The translations under genes were made by a program, and so were the position numbers. Source: a phage. Taken from it: a DNA stretch of 64,000 bases. The DNA lies in sequence record PX393108.1, one strand, 5' to 3'. The notes beneath the pieces were generated by a model. The model did no database searches, was not told the DNA's origin, and saw nothing but the letters and a program-made list of their open reading frames with translations. Below, in pieces: positions 1 to 6,607 of the stretch (its first letter is position 1; each line of letters begins with the position of its first letter).

Positions 1-726
1 AATAAAAAGTGAATCTATAGGTCCTTCTAGAACATATACATCACCATCTTTAACTCGTTCAACGCCATAGATTTTTGTTGCTTCAGGATAAGCTTTGATG
101 GTGATATATTTTTGAGGAGCATCTTTCTTTAATGCACGTCCTTGAAAAGACTCAGCTTTTCCATTAGCATTATAAATTGGAATAACAAGACGAGGCTCAG
201 GTATTTCCTTTTTATATGTTCCCGGTGCTATGCTATTAACTAATTTAGGCCATTCGGTTGTAAACCAAAGATATTTCCATTTATCCTTTGGAATACAACG
301 AGCTTTTACATATTTTATAATTGGATGGTCTTCCGCCAGTTTATCTAATCTAATGCATGACGGAAGAGATTTAATTATTTTCTTCTCAGGTTGTTTAGGA
401 AGTTCTTTAGGTTTTTCTACTGGACGACTTTTACCTTTTTCTTTTCTTATTTCAAAGATATACTCACGATATAAATCAGGTTCAAACTCCTTTAAATATA
501 TTCCGATTGGTGCATGATAGTTGCAATTATAACAATGAATATTTCCTTCATTATTATCGCCATAATACCATCCACGGGCTTTATTTTGGTCGGTTTTTGA
601 ATCTCCACAAACAGGGCATCTAAACCGCAATTTAAAAGTTGAACTATTATTTACTTGTGTGAATTTAGGTAAATGAGCTAATGCACGGTATGCAAACTCA
701 TTATCAATCCAAGGTATTGATGACAT
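1..726 (-). CDS. 61: DNA primase gp61, partial (N-terminal part; gene continues past window start)
   Basis: Minus-strand ORF to window edge, start at 726; N-terminus MSSIPWIDNEF with CPVCGDS...HCYNC zinc ribbon; adjacent to helicase 41 region. Confidence 0.85.
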   Translation of the reverse strand, partial: MSSIPWIDNEFAYRALAHLPKFTQVNNSSTFKLRFRCPVCGDSKTDQNKARGWYYGDNNEGNIHCYNCNYHAPIGIYLKEFEPDLYREYIFEIRKEKGKSRPVEKPKELPKQPEKKIIKSLPSCIRLDKLAEDHPIIKYVKARCIPKDKWKYLWFTTEWPKLVNSIAPGTYKKEIPEPRLVIPIYNANGKAESFQGRALKKDAPQKYITIKAYPEATKIYGVERVKDGDVYVLEGPIDSLFI

Positions 727-728
727 TT

Positions 729-893
729 TTACTCTTCTTTTTCTTTAGATTCCTCTTTTTTCTTTTTAGGAATCTGTTCAGGACCTTTATTTACTACAGC
801 ACCTGACGTTGTTCCAGTAGAGATATTTTCAGGATTACCACCCGAATCTCCAGCTACCATATCTTCTTTAATAAATTCTTTATATGTTTTCAT
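729..893 (-). CDS. Small protein (54 aa), 61.1-like, N-terminus MKTYKEFIKE resembles capsid targeting sequence
   Basis: ORF below 60-aa track threshold, read manually; ATG at 893, stop TAA at 729-731. Confidence 0.45.
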   Translation of the reverse strand: MKTYKEFIKEDMVAGDSGGNPENISTGTTSGAVVNKGPEQIPKKKKEESKEKEE

Positions 894-894
894 A

Positions 895-1251
895 TTAACC
901 TCTATTCATAAAAGCATTAAAAATTTGGTCATCAATCGATGGAATAGCAACCTTTTCGGCATCATTTAGCAAATCATTAATTTCATCAGATAGCATAACG
1001 CATGTACCTTTATTTCCTGTAATTGTTACTGCGCAATTACGAACGTTTTCTTTATCAAATTTTAGGTTAATATTTTCGTAGTGAAAATCCTTTAATGCCG
1101 AATATATCTTTAAAATGAAATTGTCTTTTACTACAATAAACCCAACTTCACTATTAAAACGTGGTTCATGGAAACTGTAATAAACCTTTTCATCTATAAA
1201 ATCGTATGAAATTTTTTCCATTTTTAAATATGAAAATTCAGAACTATACAT
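895..1251 (-). CDS. Hypothetical early protein (118 aa) in 61-41 interval
   Basis: ORF track; position equivalent to T4 61.2. Confidence 0.45.
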   Translation of the reverse strand: MYSSEFSYLKMEKISYDFIDEKVYYSFHEPRFNSEVGFIVVKDNFILKIYSALKDFHYENINLKFDKENVRNCAVTITGNKGTCVMLSDEINDLLNDAEKVAIPSIDDQIFNAFMNRG

Positions 1252-1263
1252 ACTAACCTCTAA

Positions 1264-1557
1264 TTACTCACCTACCACTTCAGCGATGATATTTTTATTA
1301 TTGAAGTTTTTATCACAATACAGAACGTAATTATACTGCATTACACCACCAGACTTAAGCTGTTTTTGCACTTCAGCTTTCATTTCAGGACGATCACGCT
1401 CAACGATATTCATAATATCCGCTTCAATTTGAGTTTCAACTTCAGTCTGATCTGCAGTCATAGACCATTCACACAAATCTTTGTCATAACCCGCCATAGC
1501 AGGCTGAGCAGCGCAAGAAGATAAAGCAAAAATTGCAGCAAAGATAAATTTTTTCAT
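1264..1557 (-). CDS. sp: Spackle-like periplasmic protein (97 aa)
   Basis: Signal peptide MKKFIFAAIFALSSCAA; 97 aa; RBS GAGGAG; early promoter upstream; T4 sp position. Confidence 0.7.
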   Translation of the reverse strand: MKKFIFAAIFALSSCAAQPAMAGYDKDLCEWSMTADQTEVETQIEADIMNIVERDRPEMKAEVQKQLKSGGVMQYNYVLYCDKNFNNKNIIAEVVGE

Positions 1558-1581
1558 GATAATCTCCTCAGTAGTTTATGT

Positions 1582-1615
1582 TTATAGTATCTCAATTTTC
1601 AACAAAAGTAAACAC
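1582..1615 (-). promoter_or_regulatory. T4-type early promoter upstream of sp
   Basis: GTTTAC, 18-nt spacer, TACTAT on minus strand; RBS and ATG downstream. Confidence 0.5.
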
Positions 1616-1660
1616 TAGTAGAAGCAAACAGACAAATTGCAATAATTGGTGATTTCAGTT

Positions 1661-1855
1661 TCATTCTTCTCCTCCTTCATGTTGATGAACATATTCTTTT
1701 TCAAGTCTAGAGCACAAGTTTTCATATTCAACTAATAAAAATGAATCAAGTGCGTTATTTCTATGCTGACACCGTTCTTGTAAAGAATCCATCTCTGAAC
1801 GTTGTTCTTGTGTTAATAATTGATAACCTGATACTTTAGACATTTTGTTCTCCAT
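1661..1855 (-). CDS. Hypothetical small early protein (64 aa)
   Basis: ORF with RBS GGAGAA and own early promoter upstream. Confidence 0.5.
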   Translation of the reverse strand: MENKMSKVSGYQLLTQEQRSEMDSLQERCQHRNNALDSFLLVEYENLCSRLEKEYVHQHEGGEE

Positions 1856-1871
1856 TTACTCGTTTGTTTTG

Positions 1872-1900
1872 ATAGGTCTATAATAACATGTTTAAAACAA
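1872..1900 (-). promoter_or_regulatory. T4-type early promoter
   Basis: GTTTAC, 17 nt, TATTAT on minus strand upstream of ORF 1661..1855. Confidence 0.45.
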
Positions 1901-1907
1901 AAGTAAA

Positions 1908-2162
1908 CTATTTTATTTCCTCAAGTTCGTTAATCAATAAAAGTTCTCTGGCGCTAAAAACAAAGAAAAATGTGTTCCCATCAACCAGAGCATGACCGCT
2001 AATAGAACACCCTCTGCGGAATTTAGAAACTTCACAATCTAGAACTGTAAAGGGTTTTAATCCTATGACTTTAGCTGTGCGTCTATTCAGTTCACAACCA
2101 CTCGCGAATTTTTCCAAATCTTCTTCTGATTTAAACTGATATTCTCTATTAACTAGCATCAT
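1908..2162 (-). CDS. Hypothetical small early protein (84 aa)
   Basis: ORF with RBS and own early promoter (GTTTAC ... TATAGT) upstream. Confidence 0.5.
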   Translation of the reverse strand: MMLVNREYQFKSEEDLEKFASGCELNRRTAKVIGLKPFTVLDCEVSKFRRGCSISGHALVDGNTFFFVFSARELLLINELEEIK

Positions 2163-2187
2163 TTTCTTTTCTCCGCGATTAGCTGAT

Positions 2188-2225
2188 AGAATTACTATAA
2201 CACAACTCTATCAGCTTGTAAACTA
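2188..2225 (-). promoter_or_regulatory. T4-type early promoter
   Basis: GTTTAC ... TGTTATAGT on minus strand upstream of ORF 1908..2162. Confidence 0.5.
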
Positions 2226-2483
2226 CTATTTTAAAACTTCTGTATAATCACATGTTACAAACTGTTTCTCTAACTTGACGATTTTACGAAAGTATCTTTT
2301 GCATTGGCGAATCTGCCGCTTTGTAGGGCGCACAGCAAACTTAATAAATTCCACTCGACCAAATGGAGGGCTTTCTTCTGCTGGAATATCTAATACCAAT
2401 TCCCACGTATCTGCGATAAGTGCTTTGAATTGAGTATTTTTCCTGACGTTATACGGAGTAGGTTTAAATAAAACAATATGCAT
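2226..2483 (-). CDS. Hypothetical small early protein (about 85 aa; start moved to internal ATG with GAGGA RBS)
   Basis: ORF 2226..2525 trimmed; ATG 2 nt after dmd stop with RBS GAGGATAA. Confidence 0.45.
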   Translation of the reverse strand: MHIVLFKPTPYNVRKNTQFKALIADTWELVLDIPAEESPPFGRVEFIKFAVRPTKRQIRQCKRYFRKIVKLEKQFVTCDYTEVLK

Positions 2484-2484
2484 A

Positions 2485-2667
2485 TTATCCTCGGCAATCC
2501 ACTTCGCATACTTTCTTGTCATCAATGAAAGCTTTAACTAGCGCTTTATTAACTTCAGCATATTGAGTAGTAGCCCATTGAACGTCATCTTTCATCATTG
2601 TGATTTCTTTAGTAAACATGCTTTCATTCTTAAACCACCCCATAAAAACTACCTTTACCAATTCCAT
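2485..2667 (-). CDS. dmd: Dmd-like antitoxin (discriminator of mRNA degradation), 60 aa
   Basis: 60-aa ORF MELVKVVFMGWFKNESMF immediately upstream of gene 41 as in T4; strong RBS GAGGAG; early promoter upstream. Confidence 0.65.
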   Translation of the reverse strand: MELVKVVFMGWFKNESMFTKEITMMKDDVQWATTQYAEVNKALVKAFIDDKKVCEVDCRG

Positions 2668-2689
2668 AAAAATCTCCTCATTTAACCAA

Positions 2690-2730
2690 CAAGACTACTA
2701 TACCATAGTCTTGTCGGCTTGTAAACTAAA
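2690..2730 (-). promoter_or_regulatory. T4-type early promoter upstream of dmd
   Basis: GTTTAC, 18 nt, TATAGT preceded by TGG, on minus strand. Confidence 0.55.
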
Positions 2731-4153
2731 ATTTTAATTCATTTGCCAAAGCATCTAACTGAGCTCGAGCGGATTCGTTTCTTTGATAGCGATTCTGTTC
2801 AGCCTGAATCTGCTGTGAACCTGCTACTTCGTTCACTTCAGTTGGAGTAGAATCTTGTTCAATTTCTACCCATTTCTGATTTCCTTTTTGAACACCCATC
2901 AAAAACTTATTCCATTTATTCTTATCACCGTATCGTGATTTGATTTGCTTAATGAGTTGTTGTTCAGCAGCTGCTAACTCCTCGGTTTCAATGACCGCAA
3001 GCATAAAATCGGCTGTTGCTGGAAGACCGGCAGATTCTGCAATATCGCTCATGTTAACATCAGAAGAATCCCAAGCTTGTTTACCAACCTGTGCTGCAGT
3101 CCAAAGAACAGTTTCGGTTTCAACAGCCAGAGCACGCAATTCCTCTGCGATAGCTTTAACAGTTGTGTAACTATTTTCTGAATAAACTCTGATGCGACAA
3201 GATTTACAAATACCTAGATAGTCAACAATAATGATTGTTGGAACAAAATTCTTCTTGAGCTTTAATTCGTTTAAAAGCGATCGAAATGTATTAGCGTCTG
3301 CTCCACCAGTAGGATACTGTTTAACGATTAAACGTCCAAGAGTAGATTTCTCACGCCATTTTTCCATTTTTCCTTTATATTCAGCGTAAGAAATATGCCC
3401 ATCATCAATGTCATCAAGAGAAACGTCAAGCATATTAGCATCAATACGTTTAGCACAGACTTCTTCTGCCATTTCCATGGAAATGTAAAGAACATTGTGT
3501 CCGAGCTGCAAATAATCTGCTGCCAATGAACACAATCCTAATGACTTACCAACGTTAACACCAGCCATTAAAACGTTCAGTGTTCCAGTCTCAGCTCCGC
3601 CTTTAGTAATTTTATTTAGAATTTTGAGTTTAAATGGAACCTTACGAGCTTTATTCATATAAGATAGCCAACGTGCTTCGTAGTCATCCATCCAATCATG
3701 ACCAACGTAGCTATCAAATGAAATTGATAATGCTTGGCGCATGATGTCAGGAATAGCACCTACATCTGGCATTTTCTTATTTCGTTTTTCCGGAGGAAGC
3801 TCAGCATTAGTTTGAATTTCAATTATTTTAGATGTGGCGTTAAACATCGCCCTTTGCTGAACATATTTTTCTGTTTCTTTTACTAACCAGCTATGGTCTT
3901 CCGGAGAATCGGCCAGTTTTGAAATAAGTGTTTTTACACCAGAATATTCTGTTTCAGTAAATGAACTATTTTCTAATGCAACATTTAACGCATTAATAGA
4001 TGGAACGCTATGGTATTCATTAACATGAGATTTAATTAATTTGAATGTATTTTTAGCTGGACCACTTTCAAAATATTCTGAATCCATATATGGCCAAACT
4101 TTTGAAAAATAAGCTTGATCAAATATGAGATGAGAAAGAATAATTTCTACCAC
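2726..4153 (-). CDS. 41: Replicative DNA helicase gp41 (DnaB family)
   Basis: 475 aa; Walker A GVNVGKS; DnaB-like motifs; T4 gene order. Confidence 0.9.
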   Translation of the reverse strand: MVEIILSHLIFDQAYFSKVWPYMDSEYFESGPAKNTFKLIKSHVNEYHSVPSINALNVALENSSFTETEYSGVKTLISKLADSPEDHSWLVKETEKYVQQRAMFNATSKIIEIQTNAELPPEKRNKKMPDVGAIPDIMRQALSISFDSYVGHDWMDDYEARWLSYMNKARKVPFKLKILNKITKGGAETGTLNVLMAGVNVGKSLGLCSLAADYLQLGHNVLYISMEMAEEVCAKRIDANMLDVSLDDIDDGHISYAEYKGKMEKWREKSTLGRLIVKQYPTGGADANTFRSLLNELKLKKNFVPTIIIVDYLGICKSCRIRVYSENSYTTVKAIAEELRALAVETETVLWTAAQVGKQAWDSSDVNMSDIAESAGLPATADFMLAVIETEELAAAEQQLIKQIKSRYGDKNKWNKFLMGVQKGNQKWVEIEQDSTPTEVNEVAGSQQIQAEQNRYQRNESARAQLDALANELKF

Positions 4154-4162
4154 ACTTACTCC

Positions 4163-4525
4163 TTAAAAGAATTTAAATTTTTTCTTTGACCTTTTATTAA
4201 ATGCATCTTGTAGTTGCATTGTAATACATTTTTCTACATGAGGAGCTAACTCAGCTTTTCTTTCTTGGTCAAGAACAGCAAAGTCCATTACGACTTTTCC
4301 ATCAACCCAATCTAATTTTGTCACATACACAATGTGTGTAGAACCGTCTTCTAGTTTAATGACAATCTCCTGGATAACATTTTCCATGGCAGATTTAATT
4401 ATCTTAAGAGATTCATTAAAAAGACGTTCTTTTCTTTCTTCTTCCCCCTCCGAAGAGGGGGATTCATCGATAATTTCTAGATCTAAATCTAAATCATCTT
4501 TATTCATTAAATTCTTCCATATCAC
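4163..4525 (-). CDS. 40: gp40-like head assembly protein
   Basis: 120-aa ORF between 41 and uvsX as in T4. Confidence 0.5.
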   Translation of the reverse strand: MIWKNLMNKDDLDLDLEIIDESPSSEGEEERKERLFNESLKIIKSAMENVIQEIVIKLEDGSTHIVYVTKLDWVDGKVVMDFAVLDQERKAELAPHVEKCITMQLQDAFNKRSKKKFKFF

Positions 4526-5681
4526 TTAACTGATCTAGGTCAGTTTCTAAATCAGCTGCTGATTTACTTTTACTTTCTGGAGATTTAAATTTTTCAACCT
4601 TTGAGTTAATCAATTCATCAACTTCAGCTTCAACAATTTCATTACTATCAATAGCACCTAACTGATAAGCGCGTTTAATAGCATCTCGGAATGGTTGATG
4701 CTTAAATAAAGGACCCCAGAATGTAGTACAGTTGGTATCTTTTGCGCGCCAAGATTTTTCTTCGCGAATCATCTCGCCGGTTTCTTCATCAAGAAATTCA
4801 CGAGCATACCAGCCATTTTTAGGTTTTACTACAAATCCTAATTCAAGAGCCATATCTAACAATCCAGAATAAGGATCGATGCCACCGTCAAATTTAACAT
4901 CAATAAAGAATTTACTTTTTTCTTTAACTGTACGAGATTTTTCTACATTTAGAACAAATTGATACCCCTGAAGATCAGAACCATCTTTAATCTGGCGCTT
5001 ACCGATAATGAATACAGTATCAGCCGAATACATTACGCCTGTACCACCTGTCATCACGGTTTTACTAAACATTTCAATTGTTTCAATTGTATGGTTAACC
5101 GCAACGCACGGAATGTTTTTAATACTAAAATAAGGAGTAACAATACGGAATAATGACTTCAGTGATTTAGCACGAGTCATATCTGCCACAGATTTTTCAT
5201 TCAAGGCATCTTCCGTTTCTTTCTTAGAAGCCATATTACCGATTGAGTCGATGAATACAATAACTTTTTCACCGCGCTCAATAGCTTCAAGCTGATTCAC
5301 CATATCAATTTTCAGTTGTTCAACTGACTGGATTGGTGTATGAATTACACGTTCCGGGTCAACTCCCATGGATCGCAAATAAGCTGGAGTAATACCAAAT
5401 TCGCTATCATAGAATAAACAAACCGCATCAGGATATTTGTTCAAATACGCCGCAACCATAGTCAAAGACATATTTGATTTAAAGTGTTTAGAAGGACCTG
5501 CAAAAATGGTTAAACCAGACTGCATACCACCATCAATCGCGCCGGAAATAGCGATATTGAGCATTGGAATTTTTGTACGGATTACATCCTTTTCATTAAA
5601 GAATTTAGATGTAGTCAGTTCAGCAGTCATTTTAGAAGTGGAAGCTTTAATCAAACGGGATTTTAAATCTGCAATAGACAT
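4500..5681 (-). CDS. uvsX: UvsX recombinase (RecA/Rad51 family)
   Basis: 393 aa; N-terminus MSIADLKSRLIKAS; RecA fold ATPase motifs; T4 gene order. Confidence 0.9.
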   Translation of the reverse strand: MSIADLKSRLIKASTSKMTAELTTSKFFNEKDVIRTKIPMLNIAISGAIDGGMQSGLTIFAGPSKHFKSNMSLTMVAAYLNKYPDAVCLFYDSEFGITPAYLRSMGVDPERVIHTPIQSVEQLKIDMVNQLEAIERGEKVIVFIDSIGNMASKKETEDALNEKSVADMTRAKSLKSLFRIVTPYFSIKNIPCVAVNHTIETIEMFSKTVMTGGTGVMYSADTVFIIGKRQIKDGSDLQGYQFVLNVEKSRTVKEKSKFFIDVKFDGGIDPYSGLLDMALELGFVVKPKNGWYAREFLDEETGEMIREEKSWRAKDTNCTTFWGPLFKHQPFRDAIKRAYQLGAIDSNEIVEAEVDELINSKVEKFKSPESKSKSAADLETDLDQLSDMEEFNE

Positions 5682-5758
5682 TCATTTTTTCCATAGGCAT
5701 CATTATATTTTCCTCACTGGTTAAAGATAGAGTAATTATAACACAATAAATTTAGGCA

Positions 5759-6607
5759 TTAATCAACTGCTATTGGATGAATAGCATTAAACTTATGAAA
5801 CGCTTCTGATTTTTCTTTGCGCGAAACACACATGCGAAGAACCTTTAATGGCTCGTCTTCTTCACCTAATGATTTTCGTTTTTCAATATTAGAAGTTTTC
5901 CAACGAGCTTGCTCTGGAAACTCTCTATTGATTTGCTCAAGAGCTCTATTATGTTTTGAATTACTACGAATTGAACTACATCCGCCTGGAGCTTGTGCTT
6001 TTCCAGATACAACCAGATATTTGAACAAGGCCAAATGCGGATAACCTTGATTAATTAAATTGAGAAATGCATACATATCTTCGCATAAATCAATTTTTCC
6101 ATACCCAATTTGTTCTGTTGTAAGTTTTCCAAGGTCATACCATGTATTCGTGAATCCATATGAATTTTCACGATAATTACCCCAAGATGAAGTAATTTTA
6201 AAAATAGGTAGACGAGCATGACCGTGATAATACCCGCAATCCATGGCATCTTCAACGTATTGAATCAATTCATAGAACTGTTCACGAGTTAACTGATTAA
6301 TTTTATCTACGCAGCGACGATCATCTTTCTTTCGCATTGAACTCATACGAATAGTAGTATCATCGTCAATCATCCAAATTCGTTGACCTGCATACATATC
6401 AGTAATTGCTTTACGAGTACCAGCAATTCCGTTAACATCATCAGGAATAGTTATAATTTTAGCTCTAGACCCGTAAGCGTCATAATAAGCTTTTTCTTCG
6501 TGTTCACGTACTACAATATGAGGTTCATAATCAGATGGAAACATATCAAGGGCAGAAACTGCCCCTACGCGTTGATAGCTTGGAATTACGAATTGAATCA
6601 TTTCCAC
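5759..6607 (-). CDS. Putative GT-A fold glycosyltransferase at the position of T4 beta-glucosyltransferase
   Basis: 282 aa; N-terminal VIPSYQR nucleotide-sugar binding-like motif and WMIDDD (DXD) motif; lies between uvsX and 42; not the T4 beta-gt sequence. Confidence 0.55.
   Translation of the reverse strand: MEMIQFVIPSYQRVGAVSALDMFPSDYEPHIVVREHEEKAYYDAYGSRAKIITIPDDVNGIAGTRKAITDMYAGQRIWMIDDDTTIRMSSMRKKDDRRCVDKINQLTREQFYELIQYVEDAMDCGYYHGHARLPIFKITSSWGNYRENSYGFTNTWYDLGKLTTEQIGYGKIDLCEDMYAFLNLINQGYPHLALFKYLVVSGKAQAPGGCSSIRSNSKHNRALEQINREFPEQARWKTSNIEKRKSLGEEDEPLKVLRMCVSRKEKSEAFHKFNAIHPIAVD

Follow-up and report, generated by a model that had tools for sequence, protein, structure and literature searches.

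The DNA analysed here is a stretch of 64,000 nucleotides from sequence record PX393108.1 (hereafter the window), whose source phage is a Tequatrovirus. Positions 1-6000 of the window contain a T4-like replication-gene region on the minus strand, in the order uvsX, 40, 41, seven small open reading frames (ORFs) and the primase gene 61. The seven ORFs, which are all located on the minus strand and code for proteins of 54, 118, 97, 64/60, 84, 85 and 60 amino acids (aa), fill positions 729..2667 and are the subject of this study. A first reading made from the letters of the window (the sequence-only reading) had described small ORFs between the primase and helicase genes; their position was confirmed, they are co-oriented, and the six ORFs that it had counted are in fact seven. 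In a previous study, the region with dmd, tifA (61.4) and adfA (61.2) was named the 'anti-TA island' (TA, toxin-antitoxin) and its remaining genes were put forward as attractive antitoxin candidates (Srikant et al., 2022, PMC9391042); the statement of the sequence-only reading that the 61-41 interval of T-even phages also holds anti-ToxN and anti-DarT genes is in agreement with that study. It is virtually certain that the region described here is this known accessory anti-TA island of Tequatrovirus between 41 and 61. The locus comprises the following features, for which percentages give protein identity unless stated otherwise:

1..727, minus strand: 5' part of the primase gene 61, truncated by the edge of the window; bounds the island downstream
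729..893, minus strand: gene 61.1, 54 aa, 96.3% identical to T4 gp61.1; phrog_1823, E 7e-34; no Pfam match
885..919, minus strand: MotA-dependent middle promoter P61, with MotA box AATGCTTTT at 918-910, a 12-nt spacer, -10 element TAATAT at 897-892 and a start at ~885
895..1251, minus strand: gene for the T2-type gp61.2, 118 aa; paralogous to AdfA (anti-DarT factor A) over the C-terminal half of the latter only
1264..1557, minus strand: sp (spackle), 97 aa, 96.9% identical to T4 Sp; Pfam T4_Spackle PF25676, E 2.8e-45
1584..1613, minus strand: early promoter of sp, 61.2 and 61.1, of the GTTTACTTTTGTT type, with no stem-loop; left insertion boundary
1615..2217, no strand assigned: insertion of 603 bp relative to T4 and T2, made up of two promoter-plus-ORF cassettes
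1661..1843 (or 1661..1855), minus strand: ORF60, 60 aa (64 aa from the first ATG); phrog_37915, E 1.2e-45; no counterpart at the T4 locus
1880..1908, minus strand: early promoter of ORF60, whose -35 region repeats that of the sp promoter (89% over 18 nt)
1908..2162, minus strand: ORF84, 84 aa; a stand-alone protein homologous to the GoF N-terminal domain of T4; lacks a counterpart at the T4 locus
2181..2223, minus strand: early promoter of ORF84, whose -10 element is enclosed by a 14-bp stem-loop resembling a promoter-early stem-loop (PeSL); right insertion boundary
2226..2483, minus strand: tifA (61.4), 85 aa, 97.6% identical to T4 gp61.4; Pfam DUF7279, E 2.2e-20; directly downstream of dmd
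2485..2667, minus strand: dmd (61.5), 60 aa, 100% identical to T4 Dmd; Pfam Dmd PF17587, E 1.6e-46
2686..2726, minus strand: early promoter of dmd-tifA, with a 15-bp stem-loop around the -10 element
2726..4153, minus strand: gene 41, replicative helicase, 99.6% identical to T4 gp41 over 475 aa; upstream boundary of the island

A megablast search with positions 600-2800 matched 522 phage records, 29 of which carry at least 80% of this region in one piece and show the whole architecture; the best matches were Shigella phage SH-1 (99.0%), SH-2, ADUt, ime09 and PP01. Gene 61 starts with the ATG at position 726 and its N-terminus, MSSIPWIDNEFAYRA, matches that of T4 gp61. Window positions 1-939 share 97.2% DNA identity with T4, and the proteins gp41, Dmd, gp61.4, Sp and gp61.1 are 96-100% identical to their T4 counterparts. 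Judged by these values, Dmd, TifA, Spackle and gp61.1 are ordinary orthologues of the T4 proteins. The dmd gene lies directly downstream of 41 and its product matches the Pfam profile over its full length (positions 1-60 of 60). T4 Dmd binds and blocks the RNase toxins RnlA and LsoA, and the window protein, being identical to this characterised inhibitor, would be expected to inhibit both toxins as well. For Spackle, the match covers profile positions 1-96 of 96, and the hydrophobic N-terminal leader MKKFIFAAIFALSSCAAQPAMA is present. In T4, Spackle acts in the periplasm, where it inhibits the gp5 lysozyme of superinfecting phage. Both proteins had been recognised in the sequence-only reading as a Dmd-like and a Spackle-like ORF, and the identities and E values given above bear this out. 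The tail of gp61.1 is of low complexity and rich in lysine and glutamate.

The same reading had left four ORFs unassigned. Two of them can be placed, the ORF at 2226..2483, which is tifA, and the one at 895..1251, which codes for the T2-type gp61.2; those at 1661..1855 and 1908..2162 lie in the 603-bp insertion. The assignment of ORF 2226..2483 to TifA is based on its size of ~85 aa, its position after dmd in the same operon, its homology to gp61.4 and the presence of a central basic cluster. Two substitutions distinguish it from the T4 protein, both of them in the C-terminal CDYAEILK, which reads CDYTEVLK in the window, and the RPTKRQIRQCKRYFRK segment is unchanged. Gene 61.4 was renamed tifA as the gene for an inhibitor of ToxN (PMC9391042), and the T4 and RB69 TifA proteins have been shown to bind both ToxN and RNA (Guegler et al., 2023, PMC10853763). 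Given the near-identity to T4 TifA, the window protein probably also inhibits ToxN through the binding of ToxN and RNA.

The 118-aa protein passes the threshold of the Pfam family AdfA (PF23813) with 34.1 bits (cutoff 27), and its residues 22-118 match positions 113-211 of the 211 positions of the profile. The full-length AdfA architecture of ~210 aa is not found here, as nothing in the 118-aa protein aligns with the N-terminal half (NPVxFTYxNxMDLAYDYNWFNHD...). The protein is 35% identical to residues 109-208 of T4 gp61.2 and 94% identical to T2 gp61.2, and it belongs to phrog_4122 (E 6.7e-73), which shows a reciprocal cross-match with the AdfA family phrog_3781. The short form is present in 337 phage records, T2 included, and the long form's N-terminal half in 487 records. 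A truncated adfA was considered and rejected, since the short gene stands in tandem with a full-length adfA in the phages GEP001 and Ozark; because the two forms coexist in these genomes, we regard the short gene as a paralogue. In both phages (GEP001, locus L006, 496-1486; Ozark, locus L009, 496-1486), the genes for the 210-aa AdfA and the 118-aa paralogue each end with the same 49-nt tail, and the counterpart in the window lies at 895-1262. T4 retains the long copy only; T2 and the window retain the short copy only. Synonymous differences exceed non-synonymous ones in the 118-aa gene. Residue Asn72 of the 118-aa protein aligns with R164 of RB69 AdfA and H165 of the T4 protein, and it is an R164H change that lets RB69 AdfA bind and neutralise DarT1 (AdfA study). 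The 118-aa protein thus retains the half of AdfA in which the residue that decides DarT1 binding is located.

The first of the two additional ORFs, ORF84, matches phrog_2980 ("goF", E 1.8e-20) and phrog_622 (E 1e-4). T4 GoF has its best match in phrog_622, and its residues 11-91 also match phrog_2980. A BLASTP comparison of ORF84 with T4 GoF gave 37% identity over 41 aa (E 2e-8), and the alignment covers GoF residues 1 to ~92 and with them the entire N-terminal domain. ORF84 ends where this domain ends, and the C-terminal domain of GoF (residues ~93-141) is missing. The N-terminal domain of the GoF/MotB.1/Frd.2 family is predicted to be LSm-like, and RNA with the 5' region of gene 41 is stabilised by the GoF D25Y mutant but not by the wild-type protein (Kim et al., 2025, PMC12152347). 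ORF84 is found in 84 phage records, including 57%-identical homologues in SP18-type phages, which belong to another genus; the SP18 homologue (locus L011, 2501-2749) is located directly after gene 41, in the same island. Residues C23, C43, C52 and H57 of ORF84 are kept in the 57%-identical homologue and all four are absent from T4 GoF, and the Cys/Cys/Cys/His set may form a site for metal binding that is peculiar to the short GoF-like proteins. Matches of ORF84 to zinc-finger entries of the Protein Data Bank (PDB) at E 0.35-0.9 were rejected as noise, and a Pfam search at E up to 10 returned no family for ORF84, 61.1 or T4 GoF. No paralogues of the small proteins were found with phmmer among the 564 six-frame ORFs of the 64-kb window.

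ORF60 most likely starts at the second ATG, at 1843, rather than at 1855, because a GGAG lies 7 nt upstream, the cluster representative has 60 aa and the family alignment begins at this position. The protein is acidic (isoelectric point 4.9) and rare: it is present in 21/50,697 phage records, always with at least 95% identity, and a set of 5.8 billion proteins contains a single cluster of it. Among 1.84 billion proteins, nine remote representatives with 47-69% identity were found. These relatives share the motif GYxLLTxEQRxEMDxLxER..H...LD..L.EYE.L..RL with 14 invariant residues, which span two segments that we read as probably helical. The only indel seen, in GEP001, is an in-frame change of 3 nt. 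Because the motif is conserved in remote relatives and the indel keeps the frame, we conclude that ORF60 is a real protein of a small family. This family is confined to phages: a search of bacterial and archaeal genomes, covering 185,579 species, gave zero matches, and it occurs in one IMG/VR contig and three metagenome contigs. ORF60 has no Pfam relatives, a single 14-bit zinc-ribbon match in a search at E up to 10 being meaningless, and the N-terminal extensions of two of its relatives contain no Pfam or PHROG domain. Relatives of ORF60 at L012 2986-3192 and L010 4007-4162, two unrelated viral/metagenomic contigs, are part of long same-strand arrays of small early-type ORFs, and the array in L012 starts with an Xre-type repressor-like ORF. 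Their neighbours in both contigs are small ORFs with no annotation and provided no functional clue.

The early-promoter pattern GTTTAC-N16-18-TAYWRT has 19 matches in the 64-kb window, each of them on the minus strand, which is far more than the 0.35 expected from shuffled sequences, and 4/19 matches fall into the 2-kb island (2726-2697, 2223-2194, 1908-1880 and 1613-1584). With four promoters, at 2726, 2223, 1908 and 1613, the genes are organised in four transcription units, namely dmd-tifA, ORF84, ORF60 and sp-61.2-61.1, of which only those of ORF84 and ORF60 contain a single gene. According to the sequence-only reading, most ORFs possess their own early promoter and a strong ribosome-binding site. 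The former cannot be upheld with four promoters for seven genes; the latter can, as a GAGG/GGAG-type Shine-Dalgarno sequence is located 5-9 nt upstream of all seven ORFs. The genes dmd and tifA have been reported to be driven by an early promoter and co-transcribed (PMC9391042). The stem-loops of the dmd promoter (2686-2717) and the ORF84 promoter (2181-2216) have folding energies of -21.8 kcal/mol (z -6.11) and -18 kcal/mol (z -4.05), respectively, and no significant stem-loop was detected at the promoters of ORF60 (z 0.01) and sp (z -0.32). Neither stem-loop is a classical terminator, since no U-tract follows, and no terminators were found between the cassettes. The dmd and ORF84 promoter regions are similar to one another, and that of ORF84 (2170-2234) is 72% identical to the dmd promoter region of T4. 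Further early-promoter clusters are located in the window near 22.2-22.7, 37.9-38.9, 49.6-50.4 and 55.0-55.4 kb, and these four probably mark other hyperplastic early regions.

The middle promoter P61 lies across the 3'-terminal codons of the 118-aa gene and the initial codons of 61.1, and thereby overlaps the 61.2 stop codon and the 61.1 ATG. In T4, the P61 start site is T4 19122 (PMC2988021, Table 1), a position that maps to window 885 in the DNA alignment to T4, and by this correspondence the element is the known T4 middle promoter P61. Transcripts initiated here would not include the start codon of 61.1. In every AdfA-family paralogue, DDQIFNAFM(N/K)RG is encoded by the final 46-49 nt, and in RB69 and SP18 this stretch shows 87-92% DNA identity, compared with ~67-70% for the flanks. 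The overlap of P61 with the invariant C-terminal dodecapeptide explains this odd conservation pattern. The invariant peptide tail is thus at least partly a consequence of promoter constraint, and it should not be taken as solely a protein-function motif. The tail is repeated between the tandem paralogues and is a likely crossover point for the loss of either copy.

In blastn comparisons with both T4 and T2, the alignments break at 1614/2218 on the two sides of the 603-bp insertion and overlap by 7 bp at GTTTAC. Phage SH7 lacks only 1614-1895, that is, the ORF60 cassette, with a 13-bp overlap at the junction, which lies inside an 18-nt direct repeat (1596-1613 / 1891-1908) that consists of the -35 regions of two promoters, those of sp and ORF60. 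From 61.1 to tifA, the phages compared contain the following genes:

T4: long adfA, sp
T2: short 61.2, sp
Window and PP01: short 61.2, sp, ORF60, ORF84
SH7: short 61.2, sp, ORF84
KFS-EC3: long adfA, sp, ORF60, ORF84
GEP001: short 61.2, long adfA, sp, ORF60, ORF84
Ozark: short 61.2, long adfA, sp, ORF84
RB69: long adfA, sp, then imm and imm.1 between sp and 61.4 (locus L004, 5012-5690)

In RB69, extra ORFs also separate dmd from 41 and 61.1 from 61.2, and the 41-61 interval as a whole is a cassette hotspot. In comparisons with loci L006-L009, phages that differ by 3-6% in tifA and sp share 99.2-99.6% DNA identity in ORF84 and ORF60 (1661-2162). As this identity exceeds that of the flanking genes tifA and sp, it suggests a recent lateral spread of ORF84 and ORF60, and the cassettes look younger than their surroundings. 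For T4-type phages, promoter-mediated modular shuffling has been described, with the PST/T4-type PeSL consensus TTTACW-N17-TAYWAT (Comeau et al., 2014, PMC4122927), and the pattern of insertions and deletions seen here fits this published cassette shuffling.

Taken together, we propose that the region is the anti-TA island in its common T2/PP01-type form, in which accessory cassettes are shuffled and the variable genes code for binders of host factors. We would give this joint explanation a probability of roughly 0.7. The gene identities, promoters, cassette boundaries and family memberships described above are observations, from which we infer the targets of the 118-, 84- and 60-aa proteins. 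In this proposal, the island would be transcribed early from four sigma-70-type GTTTAC promoters, with the sp-61.2-61.1 unit continuing into gene 61. Dmd, TifA and Spackle would act as their T4 orthologues do, on RnlA/LsoA, on ToxN, which would be trapped, and on the gp5 lysozyme of superinfecting phage, respectively. The 118-aa protein might be a stand-alone binding module directed against a toxin variant other than the tested DarT1. The ORF84 and ORF60 cassettes would be gained and lost by recombination between near-identical early-promoter sequences, and we speculate that their products, like those of their neighbours, are small proteins that bind host factors stoichiometrically. ORF84 would most likely target a host factor that acts on RNA, and ORF60, an acidic protein, would form a putative helical hairpin. 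The short AdfA paralogue and the two cassettes are real accessory genes and can reasonably be regarded as candidate counter-defence genes by neighbourhood, to which the paralogue adds its partial membership in the AdfA family. The sequence-only reading had called the four ORFs that it left unassigned candidates for inhibitors of toxin-antitoxin or other abortive-infection systems. The island does not consist solely of close T4 orthologues, with one divergent gene and two that have no counterpart at the T4 locus, and the label is a fair one, although it was derived from location alone and TifA was already known.

Several observations weigh against the proposal that the variable proteins act on toxins or other host factors. 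The His residue that enables DarT1 binding is absent from the 118-aa protein, which has Asn72 instead, deletion of adfA in T4 gave no DarTG1 phenotype (AdfA study), and T2, which possesses the 94%-identical short gene, was treated as a phage without adfA by the AdfA authors. Because the neutralising residue is missing, T2 was described without adfA and the T4 deletion showed no DarTG1 phenotype, DarT1 itself is unlikely to be the target of the 118-aa protein. No function has been demonstrated for wild-type GoF (PMC12152347). AlphaFold2 (AF2) models of the 118-aa protein and ORF84 reached predicted local distance difference test (pLDDT) values of 59.9 and 63.7, both being of low confidence, and fold searches gave only weak matches. 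A sequence search of the PDB found zero relatives for the ORF60 family, the AdfA family, TifA and the ORF84 family, and PADLOC, which models defence proteins and not their inhibitors, returned zero matches for five ORFs, ORF60 among them. The 118-, 84- and 60-aa proteins show no informative homology to any toxin or defence system, and no evidence for an anti-toxin role of ORF84 or ORF60 was found in the family searches. We consider it possible, though rather unlikely, that at least one of the 118-, 84- and 60-aa proteins directly inhibits a host defence toxin and has a specificity that is new. In its sharpest version, this candidate explanation would make the short paralogue a minimal AdfA toxin-binding module retargeted to a different DarT or another toxin; in a second candidate version, the GoF-like domain family would protect phage RNA from host RNase toxins.

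Alternatively, ORF84 and possibly ORF60 might modulate phage gene expression, with the GoF-like protein acting on RNA as a small beta-barrel that tunes how stable early or middle phage transcripts such as the nearby 41/61 mRNAs are, or how they are translated. The effect of GoF D25Y on RNA with the gene 41 5' region would be in line with such a role, but wild-type GoF and MotB.1 had no effect in a reporter assay (PMC12152347), the structure model of ORF84 is of low confidence, and the absence of ORF84 from T4, T2 and most relatives (84/522 carry it) indicates that it is dispensable for core expression. We regard a modulator of expression as unlikely, although this view overlaps with the host-factor binders preferred here, since the shielding of mRNA from host RNase toxins would itself be counter-defence. 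A role of the variable genes in competition between phages, through superinfection exclusion or immunity as for sp, imm and imm.1, could account for the presence of sp within the island and for the finding that imm and imm.1 of RB69 occupy precisely the slot flanked by sp and 61.4. Unlike Sp and Imm, which act in the envelope, however, the proteins ORF60, ORF84 and the 118-aa protein range from hydrophilic to neutral, with grand average of hydropathy (GRAVY) values of -1.05, -0.08 and -0.27, respectively, and no signal peptide or membrane segment was seen by eye in their sequences, which makes this explanation quite improbable.

The least credible explanation, to which we give hardly any weight, is that mobile promoter modules carry ORF60 and/or ORF84 as passengers devoid of function or as spurious ORFs. 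Both ORFs are indeed dispensable, being absent from T4 and T2, ORF60 is very rare, and the synonymous and non-synonymous substitutions among close relatives are too few to measure selection on either of them. On the other hand, each ORF is equipped with a Shine-Dalgarno sequence and a dedicated early promoter, an intact ORF84 homologue with 57% identity and the Cys/His residues is kept in another genus, and the relatives of ORF60 at 47-69% identity retain the 14 invariant residues, the sole indel in ORF60 being in frame. The reading of the region as the T2/PP01-type anti-TA island, with shuffled cassettes coding for putative binders of host factors, is the one that we prefer.

The island as such is textbook T4 biology complemented by the counter-defence literature of 2022-2025, and its rediscovery is not new. 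The useful outcome is a short and concrete list of genes that can be tested. It contains the short AdfA paralogue, which is widespread and also present in T2, a phage regarded in the literature as lacking adfA, and it contains ORF60 and ORF84, cassettes that bring their own promoters and appear to be spreading in a neighbourhood of proven anti-toxin genes. Natural variants with the short, the long or both tandem forms of 61.2, and with or without ORF60 and ORF84, provide ready isogenic-like comparisons for host range. If it is true that GoF-like domains protect phage RNA, GoF would gain a function.

Compared with the T4 anti-TA island (PMC9391042), position, orientation, flanking genes and the early promoter 5' of dmd are the same in the window, and the dmd, tifA, sp and 61.1 proteins are 96-100% identical. 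T4 differs in coding for a 208-aa AdfA, whereas the window has the 118-aa paralogue of its C-terminal half with 35% identity, and in the window sp and tifA are separated by the two promoter-ORF cassettes of the 603-bp insertion. T2 shares the short gp61.2 with the window (94% identity) but lacks the insertion, and PP01, ime09, SH-1 and ADUt show the entire architecture of the window with 97.6-99.0% DNA identity. In the records of T2, PP01, ime09, SH-1 and ADUt, the 118-aa, ORF60 and ORF84 genes are labelled merely as hypothetical or 'goF-like'. PeSL shuffling modules of T4-type phages were reportedly described by Arbiol et al. in 2010. The early promoters of the window resemble such modules in that they fit TTTACW-N17-TAYWAT and adjoin ORFs that vary between close relatives, and in that the indel breakpoints lie inside promoter repeats; a stem-loop is present at only two of the four promoters, those of dmd and ORF84, a difference that counts against a full correspondence. 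AdfA, as known from RB69 and T4 (gp61.2), aligns with the 118-aa protein over its C-terminal ~100 residues, including the R164/H165 region and the tail DDQIFNAFM(N/K)RG, and its gene occupies the same genomic slot upstream of 61.1, but the window protein lacks the N-terminal ~110 residues and has Asn72 at the specificity position. Similarly, ORF84 aligns with residues 1-~92 of T4 GoF (comC-alpha), the predicted LSm-like domain, but is encoded at a different locus, lacks the C-terminal domain and possesses the family-specific Cys/Cys/Cys/His residues.

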